Part shown: positions 2,795 to 24,479 of the stretch, piece by piece
Layout of the letters: each line of letters starts with the position of its first letter
Numbering within the stretch: the first letter of the stretch is position 1
Assembly (NCBI GenBank): GCA_964608785.1
Contig: CAZSPM010000001.1
Coordinates: 1-27,375, forward strand
Reading direction: 5' to 3'
Origin: an uncultured Eubacteriales bacterium
GTDB lineage: Bacteria; Acidobacteriota; Aminicenantia; Aminicenantales; Aminicenantaceae
DNA length: 27,375 nt
Notes under the pieces: generated by a model
What the model was told of the DNA's origin: nothing
Database searches by the model: none
The model's input: the letters and a program-made list of their open reading frames with translations, nothing else
Program-made: the position numbers and the translations under genes

Positions 2795-5149
2795 TCATTC
2801 ATCGGTTTTGGTCTCGCCTGTCACGATTTGTTTGATCTCCTCTGAGGAGGCAACTCCGCTGTTAAAAAGATAACAGGAAATGTTCTCAAGGAGGCGCTCG
2901 AAAAAACGCCTCTGATGTTCCATTCGCTCAGGAGCGGTTAAGAGAAGATGAGGGTTATAATATGGCTCACTTTTAGAAGGAGTCAAGTCTCCTGCTATGC
3001 CCAAGCTTTGCCCCGATTCAAGCATGCGCACGGCGTCTTCCGCTTCGACCTCAACCACCGGCGGTGAGACATTGTCGTACCGGAGGATAAACATCCAGCG
3101 AAGTGTACTGCGTTTGACGTGCAGGGTTGCTCCCTCAATCCAGTATGGATCGAGAAGGGCGTGGGCATTCTTCGAGGCTTTATAACAGTAAGGCGACCCC
3201 CGGTCAAGACGGCAATCATCCAGGCGCAGGCATTCTGCGTCCTGACAGTCATCTTTGCGCGTAATTACATTTTCACACTTACTGTTGTTGAAAAGAGGAG
3301 CTAAGCGTGGATAGGATTCTACAGTATTTGTTGGTATAAAGAGCTTCCTCTCTGAGGAGTCAGCCTGGGTTATGCCTCCTGCAAAACGGACAAAGACGAT
3401 ATCATTGGAGTGAAGGCGGAATCTTTTATCAGAGAACAAGGTGAAGAAAATTTCGGTTTTCTTTGTTCCTTTGGGTCCGACGAGGATCAGTCCATTGCCA
3501 TCAATGTCTGCTGACATCCCGCGGATCGCATGGACGTTAAATAATCTTTCCGAGACATCCATGACAAGACCCAGAGCCAGGCTGCGCAAGGGGGGGTAGT
3601 TATCTGTATTGACCAGCACTCCTGTTTTTGTTTCTGAGTTGTAAAAAGCACGAGGTTCTCGGCCGGCTATGCCATCAACGGCATAGATTATGCCGTGGGG
3701 TTCCAGGTCAGCTTCCAGTTGAGCCGGATACCAGTTCTCGATCCAGAAGTCATTGAGGTGGGAGACATTCGTCCGTAATTGAACGATGACGCCGTTGATA
3801 TTCGCATTCCACTCAAAATAGTTTTCATAGCTGAGGTGGTTTTCCAGCTCAGCTACCAGAGCATTCCTCATCTTGACATCGATCGTAGAATCTACAGGAA
3901 CTCGCTTCTTTTCTCGTGTTATGGTGTTGTTCAAAGCGAGGCGGATGACTTTTTTGGGCGTTTTAAGGTGGGAAAGAGCCTCAGCGATTCTATCCAAGCC
4001 CTTTTCCAGGTTTTCCAGGGAAGTAGCATAGGAGATACGGCTGTAATCGTCAGCCCCAAAGGCATCTCCAGGAACGATCGCCACATTTGCTTCTTTCAGG
4101 AGATAGTAAGCCAGGCCGTAGGAGTTTCGGATCTGGACATTGTTGAATTCTTTATCATGATAATGGGAAAAATTGGGAAAAAGATAGAAAGCTCCCTGTG
4201 GCTTGAAACAGGAGACATTGGGAATGGTCTGAAGACGCATTAGGGCATAATTCCTGCGCCTCTGAAATTCAGAAGCCATTTTGGAAATTTCATACTGCGG
4301 TCCTGCCAAAGCTTCCATACTAGCCTTTTGTGAGATAGAGCATGGATTGGATGTTGTGTGGCTCTGGATTTTGGCCATGCCATTGATGATATCTGCAGGA
4401 CCGGCGGCAAAACCTATTCGCCATCCAGTCATGGAATAGGCCTTTGACACACCGTTGATGACGATGGTTTTCTTTTTAATTTCCTCTCCAAGAGATGCAA
4501 AGCTCACAAACTTGAAGTCATCGTAGACGAGTTTTTCATAAATTTCATCTGCAATGACATAGATGTCCTCTTCAAGGACAACGTCTGCCAAGGCTTCTTG
4601 CTCATGCTTCTGGTAAGCGGCTCCTGTAGGATTAGAGGGATTGTTTAAGATCAGAGCCCTGGTGGATGGAGAGATGGCAGATTTAAGCTGGTCAGCGTTT
4701 AAGATAAACCCATTTTCTTCCTTTGTTGGGATGATAACAGATTTGCCTTTAGCTAACGAAACGGCATGGGGATAGGTTACCCAATAAGGGGAGGGAATGA
4801 TAATTTCCTCATCCTCATTGATAAGGGCCTGGATGAGATGATAGAGGGAGCTCTTGGCGCCAGTGGATAAGATGATTTCTTCCTTCTCATAGGAAAGTCC
4901 CAAATCCTCCTTCAGCCTGTTAATGACAGCCTCTTTAAGGGCAGGGATTCCATCATTCTGTGTATACTTGGTAAAGTTTTCCTCGATAGCTTTCATGCCT
5001 GCTGATTTAACGTTATCCGGAGTGGGAAAATCTGGCTCTCCAACGCTGAGGTCAACGATATCTATTCCCTCAGCCTTCATAGCCATGGCTTTGGCCGATA
5101 TTTTAAGGGTGGGAGATTCGCCGATTTTATTGACTTTTTCTGAGACCAT
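2795..5149 (-). CDS. Fusion: PLP-dependent class I aminotransferase (aspartate aminotransferase family, aa 1 to ~396) plus a degenerate PEPCK/HPr-kinase-like domain (aa ~400-784)
   Basis: N-terminal half has GEPDF, NNPSNPTG, DEIY, SKAYSMTGWRIG (PLP Lys236) and RISYA. C-terminal half has IRG..ADIDG.GLILVGPKGTKKT, SNDIVF and CENV, which parallel PEPCK/HPrK motifs. It is one continuous ORF. Confidence 0.9.
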   Translation of the reverse strand: MVSEKVNKIGESPTLKISAKAMAMKAEGIDIVDLSVGEPDFPTPDNVKSAGMKAIEENFTKYTQNDGIPALKEAVINRLKEDLGLSYEKEEIILSTGAKSSLYHLIQALINEDEEIIIPSPYWVTYPHAVSLAKGKSVIIPTKEENGFILNADQLKSAISPSTRALILNNPSNPTGAAYQKHEQEALADVVLEEDIYVIADEIYEKLVYDDFKFVSFASLGEEIKKKTIVINGVSKAYSMTGWRIGFAAGPADIINGMAKIQSHTTSNPCSISQKASMEALAGPQYEISKMASEFQRRRNYALMRLQTIPNVSCFKPQGAFYLFPNFSHYHDKEFNNVQIRNSYGLAYYLLKEANVAIVPGDAFGADDYSRISYATSLENLEKGLDRIAEALSHLKTPKKVIRLALNNTITREKKRVPVDSTIDVKMRNALVAELENHLSYENYFEWNANINGVIVQLRTNVSHLNDFWIENWYPAQLEADLEPHGIIYAVDGIAGREPRAFYNSETKTGVLVNTDNYPPLRSLALGLVMDVSERLFNVHAIRGMSADIDGNGLILVGPKGTKKTEIFFTLFSDKRFRLHSNDIVFVRFAGGITQADSSERKLFIPTNTVESYPRLAPLFNNSKCENVITRKDDCQDAECLRLDDCRLDRGSPYCYKASKNAHALLDPYWIEGATLHVKRSTLRWMFILRYDNVSPPVVEVEAEDAVRMLESGQSLGIAGDLTPSKSEPYYNPHLLLTAPERMEHQRRFFERLLENISCYLFNSGVASSEEIKQIVTGETKTDE

Positions 5150-6670: not shown

Positions 6671-6691
6671 GCGTTTTTTTTAAAAGTTTAA

Positions 6692-6801
6692 GGGGACGTT
6701 CCCCAATCAAGTTGGGGACATGCCCCCAAAGTGCCACCCTGTGATTTGAAATTGAGGAACTTTCCCTTTTTGACAGGGTGGCACTTTGGGGAACGTCCCC
6801 A
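6692..6801. repeat. Nested palindromic repeat element, copy 1 (REP/REPIN- or MITE-like)
   Basis: Perfect 19-bp inverted arms at 6724-6742 and 6773-6791, extendable imperfectly to 6713-6801, around a 30-nt loop. An extra GGGGACGTTCCCC motif lies at 6692-6704. Homologous to 23815-23900. Confidence 0.9.
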
Positions 6802-6805
6802 TTAG

Positions 6806-7492
6806 TTAGTCGAAAAACTTAAATCTGATGATATGGAGGATGGCGGCTACTCCATCTTTCCACCCGATCTTCTTCCCTTCGCTGTAATCTCTGCCAGAGT
6901 AAGAGATGGGAACTTCGAAGATTTTGCATTTGAGTTTGGAAAATTTGATAGTGATTTCAGGTTCGAAGCCGAATCTTTTTGATTTGATAGTAATTTTGTT
7001 GAGGAATTCCCTTTTGAAGACCTTGTAGCATGTTTCCATGTCGGTCAGGTTTAGGTTAGAGAACATGTTGGATAGTGTTGTAAGAAGTTTATTGCCGACA
7101 TAATGCCAGAAAAAGAGAACACGGTGAGGGCCTCCTAGAAAACGGGAACCGTAGACGACATCAGCCCGACCATCCAGGAGAGGCTCCAGAAGTTTAGAAT
7201 AGTCTCTTGGATCATACTCCAAATCAGCATCCTGGATGAGGATAATATCGCCTTCTGCTATAGAGAATCCGGTCTGGAGCGCAGCTCCTTTTCCCTGGTT
7301 TTTGGAGTGAAGGCGGACCTTTAGGTTGGGATGTTCTAAATTTTCCAAAATCTGTCGAGTTCCATCTGAAGAGGCGTCATCGACAATGATTATTTCCTTT
7401 TCTAATCCGACCTCAACTTCTTGAACTCGATGCACTATCTCTTCTATAGTATTCTTTTCGTTGAAAACTGGAATAATGATTGAAAGTTTCAT
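6806..7492 (-). CDS. Glycosyltransferase family 2, polyprenol-phosphate glycosyltransferase (DPM synthase-like)
   Basis: LSIIIPVFNE, VDDAS.DGT, N.GKGAAL, QDADLEYDP, VVYGSRF, DMETCYK, FGFEPEIT. Confidence 0.92.
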   Translation of the reverse strand: MKLSIIIPVFNEKNTIEEIVHRVQEVEVGLEKEIIIVDDASSDGTRQILENLEHPNLKVRLHSKNQGKGAALQTGFSIAEGDIILIQDADLEYDPRDYSKLLEPLLDGRADVVYGSRFLGGPHRVLFFWHYVGNKLLTTLSNMFSNLNLTDMETCYKVFKREFLNKITIKSKRFGFEPEITIKFSKLKCKIFEVPISYSGRDYSEGKKIGWKDGVAAILHIIRFKFFD

Positions 7493-11161: not shown

Positions 11162-11295
11162 GGGGTCAGGTCTTGTTTTTTGCTTTTTTATGGCGGCAGG
11201 GGCCTTTGACTTCCTTCTCTTTGCGCTTAAAAAAGTTAAAGAACAAGGATCAGATGCTATTTTATGAAAAAAAGCAAAAAACAAGACCTGACCCC
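11162..11295. repeat. 134-bp element with perfect 28-bp terminal inverted repeats (MITE/REPIN-like)
   Basis: GGGGTCAGGTCTTGTTTTTTGCTTTTTT at 11162-11189 is the exact reverse complement of 11268-11295. Spacer is 78 nt. No target-site duplication seen. Confidence 0.85.
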
Positions 11296-20017: not shown

Positions 20018-20050
20018 GGAGGCTCAGGGCAGTGGGCTCTGAAAACACGC

Positions 20051-20077
20051 AGCTTTTGCCCCAGCGAGTCAAAAGCT
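20051..20077 (-). terminator. Possible 3' stem-loop or terminator after the mutase gene
   Basis: AGCTTTTG...CAAAAGCT 8-bp stem 9 nt past the stop codon. The U-tract after it is short and offset. Confidence 0.3.
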
Positions 20078-20086
20078 TCTCGGTTT

Positions 20087-21694
20087 CTAAATAGTAGTTA
20101 TTTCATCGAATGTGCCGTAAGATTGTTTGAGGACAGAGGAGATTTCACCGAGGGTGGCCTTTGCTGTTACAGCATCAATGATGAAGGGGAGCAGGTTATT
20201 TTGGGTCTCTACCGCTTCTTTTAAAGCATCTAACCGGTTTTTCACCTGTTTTTTTGATCTCTTGTCTTTGAGCTGCTGAAGTTTTTTGACCTGAGCTTTT
20301 TCTATTCTTTTGGGAGGATAGTAAAGATTGAGATGAATTTTTTCTTTATCATCGATATATTCATTGAGGCCAATGATGACCTGTTCTTTTCTTTCGATTT
20401 GTTTCTGATAGTTATACGCGCTTTCTTGAATTTCCTTCTGAATGAATCCTCTTTCTATAGCGGCTAGCATTCCTCCCATATTTTCTATTTTCTGGAGGTA
20501 CTCATTAACCTTTTCCTCAACCTGATTTGTCAGAGATTCGATAAAATAGGAGCCGCCTAAAGGGTCCACAGTATTAGCCACTCCGCTTTCGTGGGCAATG
20601 ATCTGTTGAGTCCGGAGAGCTATCTGGACTGAATCCTCACTCGGAAGAGCTAGGGCTTCGTCTCTGGAATTTGTGTGAAGGGATTGGGTTCCGCCTATAA
20701 CAGCGGCCATAGCTTGAAGCGTAACTCTAAGAGCGTTGTTTTCTGGTTGTTGAGCTATCAGAGTGACTCCGCTTGTTTGCGTATGGAATCTGAATTTCCA
20801 AGAGAGAGGATTTTCAGCGCGGAATTTTTCTTTCATGAGACGTGCCCAGATTCGTCGTGCGGCGCGGAACTTAGCAATCTCTTCAAAGAAATCATTATGA
20901 GAAGCAAGAAAGAAGGATAGACGAGGGGCAAAATTGTCCACATCAAGGCCTGTTTTCACTGCAGCCTCGATGTAAGTGATTGCGTTCGCCAAGGTAAAGG
21001 AAAGTTCTTGGACTGCCGTGGCTCCGGCCTCCCTAATGTGATAACCGCTGATGCTCATGGTGTTCCAGCTGGGGACATTATTTTGGCAAAAGGCCAGAAT
21101 GTCCGTGATGATTTTCAGAGAAGCTTGAGGTGGATAGATGTAGGTTCCGCGAGCTATGTATTCTTTCAGAATATCATTCTGGATTGTACCCGAGAGCTCG
21201 GTCCAGTCAATTCCTCGCTTCCGAGCTAAGGATAGATACATGGCCAGAATAATGGCCGCAGTGGAATTGATCGTCATGGAGACGCTGACCTTATCCAGAG
21301 GAATTCGATAGAAGAGGATTTCCATATCGTCGATGGAGTCAATGGCAACTCCCACCTTTCCCACTTCACCTCGGGCTTGGGGATCGTCTGAGTCAAGGCC
21401 CAATTGGGTGGGCAGATCGAAGGCGACACTCAGTCCAGTTTGACCCTGGGAGAGAAGAAAACAGTATCTTTTATTGGATTCCTCTGCAGTTCCAAAGCCT
21501 GCATACTGCCGCATGGTCCACAGCTTTCCCCTATACATCGTGGGATAGACTCCTCTTGTGAATGGATATTTTCCAGGTTCTCCCAGCTGTTCAGATTGGT
21601 TGAACTGGGCCAGATCTTTGGGGCTATAGACTTTTTTAACTTCTATCTGGGATGAGGTTAAAAATTTGGTTTTTCTCTCTTTATTCGAGGCCAT
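20087..21694 (-). CDS. Methylmalonyl-CoA mutase, large (substrate-binding) subunit of a split enzyme
   Basis: [71 protein letters not shown]. No DxHxxG B12-binding domain. Confidence 0.93.
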
Positions 21695-23814: not shown

Positions 23815-23900
23815 GGGGACGTTCCCCAAAATGACACCCTATCAAAAAGGGAAGCTCCCCAATTTCAAATCATAGGGTGTCACTTTGGGGAACGTCCCCA
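23815..23900. repeat. Nested palindromic repeat element, copy 2 (inverted relative to copy 1)
   Basis: 28-bp arms at 23815-23842 and 23872-23899 (27/28 complementary) around a 29-nt loop nearly identical to the reverse complement of the copy 1 loop. Confidence 0.92.
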
Positions 23901-24479
23901 CTATTTCCAGAGGACCTGGTGGATATTGCTGAGATCGTATTTTTTTGAGATTTTATCTAGAATTTTTGGAAAATTTTCCATTTTTTTAGATTCTAGGGCT
24001 ATATCCCATTCTTCAAGGAGTGGGGAGGAGATAAATTCATATTTCTTTTTTAAAAGTCTGGAAATTCCCCTGAAGGCCCGCCAATGAGTAATCATTAGAA
24101 GTGCTAATACACCAAAGAAAACGTTTGGACCGGGCAGCAAAACCGCCAATCCGCTTATGGGTAGAAGAAGAGTTTCGCCGATAAGAAGAAGAATATGTTT
24201 AGTTCTCTGCCTTTGGAGGAAAAAATAAAATTTAGTTCTTATCTTCTTCTCATTAAGTTGTCCGGAATAGAGAATCTGAATCTTATTTTCGTCCCATTTT
24301 AGGATTCTTCCGAACGCCTGTTCTTGCCTGAGAATTCTCTGGGGCAAAAGCATAAGCTTATTTTTAGCGAGTTCCCATATTTTCTTCCAGCGAGAAAATT
24401 TGATTTGAATTTGGGTGACGGGAACGGTAGAAAAATATCTATACTTATGCCGATAGTCCCGGACAAAAAAGAATTTCAT
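23901..24479 (-). CDS. Hypothetical membrane-associated protein resembling the Mit_KHE1 (mitochondrial K+/H+ exchange-related) family
   Basis: H...L....L.LP......LLPGPN.FF.......HWRA..G pattern and upstream IQILYS recalled from that family. Assigned from memory only. Confidence 0.55.
   Translation of the reverse strand: MKFFFVRDYRHKYRYFSTVPVTQIQIKFSRWKKIWELAKNKLMLLPQRILRQEQAFGRILKWDENKIQILYSGQLNEKKIRTKFYFFLQRQRTKHILLLIGETLLLPISGLAVLLPGPNVFFGVLALLMITHWRAFRGISRLLKKKYEFISSPLLEEWDIALESKKMENFPKILDKISKKYDLSNIHQVLWK

Follow-up and report, generated by a model that had tools for sequence, protein, structure and literature searches.

A stretch of 27,375 nucleotides of contig CAZSPM010000001.1, from an uncultured bacterium of Aminicenantaceae lineage (hereafter the window), carries two intergenic palindromes, at 6692-6800 (copy 1) and 23815-23899 (copy 2), neither of which encodes protein. 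The locus raises the question of what these palindromes are, what would mobilise them, and what keeps their arms complementary. We find that each copy is very probably a REPIN-type element, that is, a doublet of repetitive extragenic palindromes (REPs) of the known kind associated with REP-associated tyrosine transposases (RAYTs). Each copy would then comprise two inverted REPs, or terminal inverted repeats (TIRs), of about 26-28 nt with a 30-nt spacer between them, and in each REP/TIR a 13-nt mini-hairpin (GGGGA-CGT-TCCCC) would be joined through an AA linker to a second box, R-G-K-R-M-CACCCT.

Anatomy of the two palindromes

Reading both places and aligning them confirmed the original prediction, made from the letters of the window, of two palindromes about 17 kb apart in opposite orientation; they share 84% identity over 106 nt and have homologous loops. 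The terminal 13-nt mini-hairpin, GGGGACGTTCCCC, is identical in both copies, and it or its reverse complement occurs exactly four times in the window, with an additional degenerate copy at 6714-6726. When up to two mismatches were allowed, the 13-mer gave six matches against 0.37 expected, a count reached in none of 100 shuffles, and a scan for the arm (26 nt, up to 8 mismatches) returned the four arms of copies 1 and 2 only, against a shuffle expectation of 0.02. Folding of both copies as single-stranded DNA (ssDNA) gave z = -7.2 to -9.8, with 0/200 shuffles equally stable.

Copy 1 opens with an outer, extra terminal mini-hairpin at 6692-6704, an exact match to the 13-mer that lies 9 nt outside a degenerate inner hairpin, GGGGACATGCCCCC (6714-6727, two mismatches). 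Its left arm, CCCCAAAGTGCCACCCTGT (6724-6742), holds the box 2 variant AGTGCCAC and forms, as AAAGTGCCACCCTGT, a 19-nt inverted repeat with ACAGGGTGGCACTTTGGGG (6773-6791) that is complementary at 19/19 positions. Between the arms lies a 30-nt loop (6743-6772) with a degenerate third hairpin, GAGGAACTTTCCC (6754-6766), and the right arm runs on into its terminal hairpin GGGGAACGTCCCC (6788-6800; arm and hairpin together 6773-6800). Copy 2 has 28-nt arms that are 96% complementary and read GTGACACCCTAT and ATAGGGTGTCA on the minus strand. On the forward strand its left arm (23815-23842) is an exact 13-mer (23815-23827) followed by AAAATGACACCCTAT, its loop (23843-23871) contains the degenerate hairpin GGGAAGCTCCCC (23849-23860), and its right arm (23872-23899) closes with the terminal hairpin at 23887-23899. 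The hairpin termini, their degenerate version in the loop and the extra terminal motif of copy 1 are thus all present as predicted, as are the compensatory stem changes: between the copies, a C-G pair (the GTGC/GTGA position) and a G-C pair (the CCTG/CCTA position) have each become A-T on both sides of the stem, while a third pair has gone from G-C to G.T on one side only.

The extra outer 13-mer, 15-37 nt beyond the arm, was seen again at other loci (L039, L089, L155, L005 and L059; L numbers are locus labels), and at L059 the terminal motif is tandemly duplicated. The doubled left end of copy 1 (6690-6731) is repeated exactly at another locus in a contig of sequencing run X2; this run, like X1, X3 and X5, was represented by assembled contigs rather than reads.

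The same ends enclose a Y1 transposase gene in other genomes

A scan of metagenomes for a single end uncovered three loci (L080, L110 and L170) with units of 737-791 bp between inverted ends, each with a single open reading frame (ORF) of about 190-210 aa inside. These ORFs carry an HUH motif (LMPNH[VI]H) and a tyrosine motif (FQNRYKS or QNRYKS). The transposase turned up only after this single-end scan and not in a scan for paired 13-mers, whose first 59 loci held no full-length element except the REP-flanked RAYT gene of L023. When the transposase was used as a tblastn query, we recovered L104 with two ends on each side, partial genes adjoining ends in L150 and L130, and weaker partial matches in L079 and L126 that are not bracketed by inverted ends; L023, from a member of the Sandaracinaceae, encodes a protein of 38% identity with 13-mer clusters on both sides. 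Inverted ends flank the transposase in L080, L104, L110, L170, L023 and L181-L187.

The enzymes passed the Pfam Y1_Tnp model (64-72 bits against a cut-off of 23), and the best NCBIfam model was REP_Tyr_transpos (REP-associated tyrosine transposase; RayT, NF047646), the IS200 model scoring only 20-31 bits. An alignment of the transposases showed NH[VI]H, F-Q-N-R-Y (WQ in L023), Y-I-E-R-N-P and P-W-S-S to be invariant or nearly so. There are about 1,200 homologues, typically of 196 aa and mostly on a single contig, some of them named 'transposase' in Omnitrophota. As an independent test we picked four homologues (P0009, P0052, P0084 and P0026) by protein similarity alone and then read their flanks. 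An end was located about 120-140 nt upstream of the start codon in 4/4, and an inverted end 12-15 nt past the stop codon in 3/4, with box 2 abutting the stop. Three of these homologues are present in more than one assembly, each at the same locus throughout, and the end variant at the P0009 locus, AAAGTGCCACCCT, is the one that window copy 1 carries.

Searches of the PDB by sequence were weak: a single-sequence search with the transposase gave nothing at E <= 1, and a profile search gave E 2e-4, with 16% identity to the Escherichia coli enzyme TnpA-REP, so that a fold search was needed. We built an AlphaFold2 model of P0009 using database proteins only in the alignment (pLDDT 91). The best PDB match of this model was 4ER8, E. 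coli TnpA-REP with a REP hairpin (E 1.6e-8, TM-score 0.74, 159 columns), followed by the TnpA proteins of IS608 and ISDra2 at about 3e-6. No C-terminal helix-turn-helix (HTH) domain was found in the ~196-aa transposases by Pfam at E <= 0.001, which returned Y1_Tnp only; the P0009 model has C-terminal helices at 142-193, of no assigned affinity. The original prediction held that the elements probably depend on a transposase, of HUH/RAYT type or another, encoded elsewhere and proposed a search for copies flanking such a gene; the Y1 gene inside the same ends in related genomes supports this, and the protein-picked homologues are flanked too.

Two features of individual transposase loci deserve mention. 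At L104 (3437-4281), 3/4 ends carry a variant hairpin, GGGGACGTCCTCC or GGAGGACGTCCCC, showing that the 13-mer, too, is able to diverge along with its enzyme. In L181-L185 a stretch of TTATAATAGAAAG type is conserved between the upstream end and the start codon, with a purine-rich ribosome-binding site after it, and it is probably the transposase promoter and leader.

By analogy with TnpA-REP, IS608 and ISDra2, a RAYT encoded elsewhere in the Aminicenantes-like genome would bind the folded ends in ssDNA, for example at a replication fork, cut beside the hairpin by means of its catalytic tyrosine, and then move or copy the doublet. The RAYT locus of the source genome would be flanked by AAAGTGMCACCCT-type ends.

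A dispersed family of doublets, single ends and clusters

The genome scan, which covered one genome per species with the pattern GGGGACGTTCCCC-N55-85-GGGGAACGTCCCC, gave 59 loci, and other genomes contained 4-17 exact paired matches each. Two architectures were apparent. In the first, found in metagenome-assembled genomes (MAGs) of Aminicenantes, Omnitrophota and Desulfaltia and in several MAGs labelled 'uncultured Eubacteriales', elements of 81-111 bp have the 26-nt end GGGGACGTTCCCCAAGGKRMCACCCT in common, laid out as GGGGACGTTCCCC-AA-R-G-K-R-M-CACCCT, and have unrelated middles. The second was found in MAGs of high GC content (Sandaracinaceae, Betaproteobacteria and Pseudomonadota), where the 13-mer sits between A and T runs and forms clusters of alternating orientation that resemble bacterial interspersed mosaic elements (BIMEs). 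The metagenome scan for the single end yielded at least 120 loci. Among the matches listed, 80/135 arms had a partner within 300 nt and 55/135 did not, part of the latter being ends of transposase units; REP populations are likewise a mix of singlets and doublets. Arms with different flanks were also present in contigs of X2, X3 and X5, which indicates that related genomes hold further copies.

The 104-bp elements of Omnitrophota are informative as to the unit of copying. In six copies one arm has GGGGACAC and its partner GGTACCAC, boxes that are not complementary, which shows that the doublet and not the single end is what is copied. Clustering of ORFs from the first 59 loci gave syntenic pairs only and no recurrent neighbour protein, and viral contigs scanned for the end had no matches and gave no sign of a phage link. 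Longer pairs of facing arms (L151, L107, L072 and L124) were rejected as elements, as ordinary genes lie between two separate arms.

An orthologous site about 40 nt from a tRNA-Met gene is occupied in two MAGs (L042 6377-6581 and L059 1162-1367), one labelled 'uncultured Eubacteriales' and the other Desulfaltia, which are syntenic and 89% identical over 2.8 kb; the former label is doubtful because of this identity. The sequences on either side of the element at L008 (48-181) make up a perfect inverted repeat of 15 nt (CTCCCAAAAAAATTA ... TAATTTTTTTGGGAG), as though the loop of an older hairpin housed the element.

The arms covary beyond the window

The covariation that the original prediction had read from two copies held in a wider alignment. 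With the arms of 67 elements in one register and four variable box 2 positions considered, the same variant occupied both arms in 43/67 elements, against 11.7 expected and a maximum of 24 in 10,000 shuffles. A pair alignment of 63 rows showed pairing in 91% of cells and two-sided changes at 11 pairs; doubly changed cells numbered 166 against 90 +/- 8 in shuffled data (0/500 shuffles reached 166), and the signal collapsed when partner columns were slid. The covarying columns are 16, 18, 19, 20, 27 and 28, and pairing ends after column 28. These counts are inflated by kinship among elements, and orthologous copies are the more telling. Orthologous L037 and L045 differ by one double change, A..T to G..C, and by two changes on one side only; in the X1 copy of the window element, G6733>A is matched by C6782>T at the partner position, along with one wobble and one uncompensated change. 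Across three orthologous pairs, box 2 changed at 5/78 positions, compared with 18/120 in the loops (p = 0.07) and 18% in the 300-nt flanks (p = 0.006), figures that carry an ascertainment bias in that pair members needed intact 13-mers, although box 2 itself was not constrained by the search pattern.

These compensated changes would be accounted for if the doublet needs to fold, if both ends must fit the same enzyme, if the arms are homogenised, or by more than one of these acting to keep the arms complementary. Selection on the fold could be dispensed with altogether, the changes arising instead from an enzyme that, in each genome, needs one box 2 variant at both ends, or from template switching or hairpin-directed repair. 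We treat this as a serious possibility, though on balance not the one we favour. It draws support from arm variants that cluster by genome or subfamily, from the Omnitrophota elements that replicate as units in 6 copies despite their non-complementary boxes, and from the one-sided and wobble changes that stand beside compensated ones at orthologous copies (X1, X2 and L037). It sits less easily with columns 27-28, which lie just inside CACCCT and have no conserved sequence but still covary strongly (column 27: UA 26, AU 12, GC 9; column 28: UA 26, CG 19), suggesting that pairing or palindromy as such is kept rather than a recognition sequence. As between selection and homogenisation, the data fit both.

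Orthologous sites are filled, solo or empty

The original prediction had suggested looking for empty sites in related genomes, and such sites exist. An empty copy 1 site is seen in L199, the complete Aminicenantes genome CP070825.1, which is syntenic with the window from ComEC to PEPCK and in which the spacer between the family-2 glycosyltransferase (GT2) and flotillin genes measures 114 nt and lacks the 13-mer, as compared with 223 nt in the window. In a contig of the mangrove run X5 the same site has a solo hairpin, AAGGGGAATGTCCCCCTTC, replacing 127 nt, and in X1 and X2 it is filled by orthologous copies. The copy 2 site in L191, the closest relative with this region (enolase 84% identical), has a solo GGGGAACGTCTCC and then the same downstream flank, while more distant relatives have unrelated hairpins or inserts there. 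No target-site duplications or direct repeats were seen at the element ends in 61 elements inspected. Together, presence and absence at orthologous sites and solo 13-mers, with no target-site duplication, support the mobility that we infer for these elements from sequence comparison.

Sites downstream of the GT2 and Mit_KHE1 genes in relatives also have hairpins tagged with GTAG, GTAGGGGCTTGATTCATCAAGCCCAC with an inverted partner, and GGAGGGGCTTTATTTATCAAGCCCTCC (L196 2634-2759; L194/L195 around 3123-3170), which suggests that several REP-type families compete for gene-end sites in Aminicenantes. At sites that are short in the window, L192 (2850-3230), L193 (1850-2260) and L199 (9604-10000) have repeat-rich inserts between genes, which measure 385-413 nt and are made of units like GCAATCCTCYGTTGCGAGYGAAGCG.

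The genes of the window are ordinary housekeeping genes, its enolase being 80-88% identical to enolases of Aminicenantes MAGs, and both palindromes abut gene ends; the contig derives from JGI metagenome 3300002231. The minus-strand GT2 gene (6806-7492) has its stop codon 5 nt from the end of copy 1, and a minus-strand Mit_KHE1-like gene (23901-24479) has its own 1 nt from the end of copy 2. More widely, when ORFs of 100 aa or longer are considered, 23/65 elements start no more than 10 nt past a stop codon and 33/65 no more than 30 nt. This placement may reflect targeting, tolerance of insertion or a terminator role. Since the majority of copies, the two window copies among them, sit just past a stop codon, they may plausibly serve in a secondary way as 3'-end hairpins or terminators.

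Could that role be the whole explanation, the palindromes being a host 3'-end element (an intrinsic terminator or an mRNA-stabilising hairpin) and not mobile at all? Besides the placement, such a reading can cite the gene strand of copy 2, where the hairpin (23827-23815, GGGGAACGTCCCC) is followed by TTTTAATT and was called terminator-like, the unrelated terminator-type hairpins at the same site in L194/L195, and the slow change of box 2 relative to its flanks, a figure biased by the way in which loci were found, through intact ends. Copy 1 has no good T-run on its gene strand, however, and a host element alone gives no account of the same 26-nt ends across distant phyla, of ends that flank a Y1 transposase gene, of presence and absence at sites, or of either orientation relative to the upstream gene. 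We consider it improbable as a full explanation, while a 3'-end function is compatible with the REPIN-type assignment as an added one.

The 13-nt hairpin may conceivably be both the end of the element and its insertion target or excision footprint, although we think this rather unlikely. What moves would then measure about 72 nt and comprise both arms, the loop and a single hairpin; it would go in next to a solo GGGGACGTTCCCC that sits just past a stop codon, or leave such a hairpin behind on excision. The idea is suggested by the solo 13-mers at both window sites in relatives and by the recurrence of the outer 13-mer beside at least 6 elements; further hints are that for a third of the elements a stop codon lies no more than 10 nt from the start, and that box 2 changes less than the flanks at orthologous copies. 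If true, the targets of a RAYT-family enzyme in several phyla would be terminator-like hairpins where genes end, with the doublets retained by the host as 3'-end structures.

Terminal inverted repeats of 26-28 nt, a short non-coding body and dispersal would also suit a classical miniature inverted-repeat transposable element (MITE), a deletion derivative of an insertion sequence (IS) with a DDE transposase that is moved through its terminal inverted repeats. This is very unlikely, given the lack of target-site duplications noted above; moreover, among the 180 loci listed no DDE gene lies between the ends, nor is one found repeatedly in the vicinity of the elements, the only gene they bound encoding the Y1/HUH enzyme, and the tips are self-complementary hairpins, as in hairpin-recognising HUH systems. 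The original prediction had left the choice between a REP/REPIN-like and a MITE-like element open: the former stands on the doublets and the Y1-flanking ends, whereas the latter, like the attC and dif readings, was rejected on anatomy. The core sites of integron attC elements are RYYYAAC/GTTRRRY. A structured non-coding RNA gene or an attC or Xer/dif-like site can hardly be entertained despite the strong fold, as Rfam had no match at gathering thresholds and under permissive settings returned only generic miRNA-hairpin models at under half their cut-offs, the middles of different elements are hypervariable, the attC core sites are not matched by the ends, and the copies are not in a one-orientation array.

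Comparison with known RAYT systems

The REPIN-RAYT system of Pseudomonas fluorescens SBW25 (GI-GIII; Bertels & Rainey 2011, PMC3116915; Nunvar 2010, PMC2817692) has, as here, an inverted REP pair with a short variable spacer that forms a long hairpin, singlets beside doublets, and a single-copy RAYT gene flanked by the same REPs. Compensatory changes across the REPIN hairpin have been described as common, and REPIN excision in P. fluorescens is asymmetric, part of one end staying behind (PMC3116915), which resembles the solo 13-mers at both window sites. In contrast to that system, every REP here combines a 13-nt mini-hairpin with a second box, the RAYT is of another subclass, and the hosts belong to Aminicenantes-like and other uncultivated lineages and not to Gammaproteobacteria. 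Our elements agree with the structural definition of REPIN-RAYT in all but two features, the GTAG tag and the score with the curated RayT model.

The TIRtrons are a still better fit. These consist of a RAYT-like gene (TIRYT) and long inverted TIRs at roughly fixed distances that share GGGGWSAS; some TIRs are 'double palindromic', and in some genomes, among them those of Acidobacteria, they occur as dimers and clusters at moderate copy number (Di Nocera et al. 2013, PMC3733652). The counterpart of TIRYT is TnpA-Y1 subclass 2.1 in the scheme of Quentin et al. 2018 (PMC6006769) and RAYT group 1 in that of Bertels, a group which is tied to only about 12 copies of flanking 16-mers (PMC5581495). Here the TIRs are 26-39 nt long and the common box 2 variant, GGGGACAC, fits GGGGWSAS, whereas GGTACCAC, GGTGCCAC, AGTGCCAC and AGTGACAC fit it in part only, the last two, which are the window variants, keeping just its SAS part. 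Of the subclass 2.1 signature (NHVH, W[EQ]/FQ, YIELNP, SS; PMC6006769), the counterparts NH[VI]H, FQ/WQ, YIERNP and PWSS are found in our transposases. Members of the subclass have a median length of 238 aa and a C-terminal HTH-like domain (Bac_DnaA_C, HTH_23 or HTH_28), compared with ~196 aa and none by Pfam here, and the subclass is listed as 'REP: no' in Quentin et al. (PMC6006769), as opposed to the frequent dispersed doublets of this family.

The REP/BIME system of E. coli with TnpA-REP (4ER8; PMC3479197, PMC8266576) has the structure nearest to our predicted fold and an HUH/Y1 enzyme that binds a REP hairpin in ssDNA, and clusters that resemble its BIMEs, with alternating orientation, occur in the Sandaracinaceae and Pseudomonadota MAGs, but its enzyme is only 16% identical and its REP sequence and tag differ. 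IS200/IS605 elements (IS608, ISDra2) share the Y1 HUH chemistry, hairpin ends and lack of target-site duplication; they are, however, autonomous and multi-copy with asymmetric subterminal hairpins, while the present family has symmetric inverted ends and an apparently single-locus gene.

As to novelty, which the original prediction had tied to the element not matching a described family, the answer is divided. The element class is already described (REPIN-RAYT in 2011, TIRtron/TIRYT in 2013), and the class with its GGGGWSAS box has been known since 2013 (PMC3733652). The 13-mer GGGGACGTTCCCC and its reverse complement, on the other hand, had no match in the searchable literature or in those supplements of Di Nocera 2013 (PMC3733652) that could be searched, and the 13-mer family of Aminicenantes, Omnitrophota, Desulfobacterota and Myxococcota appears undescribed.

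Several points weigh against assigning the window copies to a REPIN-type family. Only two copies are visible in the 27-kb window, a tblastn search of which found no transposase homologue, and the cognate RAYT of the source genome is assumed. Related enzymes score 59-71 bits with the NCBIfam RayT model, under its equivalog cut-off of 80. Classical REPs carry a conserved GTAG tag at the foot, and this tag was not found here, where the ends begin GGGG and the flanks are A/T-rich. The mixed box 2 variants of the Omnitrophota 104-bp elements show that full arm complementarity is not obligatory. The site polymorphism may be read as insertion or as excision alike, and we infer binding, cleavage and transposition from characterised relatives.

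Other repeats in the window

Two further repeats are present. A palindromic element at 11162-11295 has perfect 28-nt arms (GGGGTCAGGTCTTGTTTTTTGCTTTTTT) around a 78-nt spacer and lies in the divergent intergenic region ahead of a BNR/sortilin gene. The first 8 nt of its arm, GGGGTCAG, fit the TIRYT consensus GGGGWSAS. The arm also occurs in L101, L103, L150 and L113, in the last of these twice and beside an element of the main family, and again in X2 and X3 contigs, where it lies in unaligned ends. The element probably represents a second family of TIR doublets, one that has a transposase of its own. A smaller repeat at 20030-20095, downstream of a methylmalonyl-CoA mutase gene, contains the palindrome AGCTTTTG...CAAAAGCT, with three copies in L191 and others in L014, L061, L171, L192 and L193, at 87-100% identity.

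Implications for RAYT-associated repeats

REPIN-RAYT work has so far been almost wholly confined to Proteobacteria, and RAYT group 1/subclass 2.1 has been reported with few or no repeats. The family described here links subclass 2.1 to frequent REPIN-like doublets in MAGs of Aminicenantes, Omnitrophota, Desulfobacterota and Myxococcota. Its strongly conserved 13-nt hairpin is a simple biochemical substrate, and the series of filled, solo and empty sites provides natural material on how such elements enter and leave genomes. For annotation, the family accounts for a class of strong intergenic hairpins past stop codons in these uncultivated lineages.

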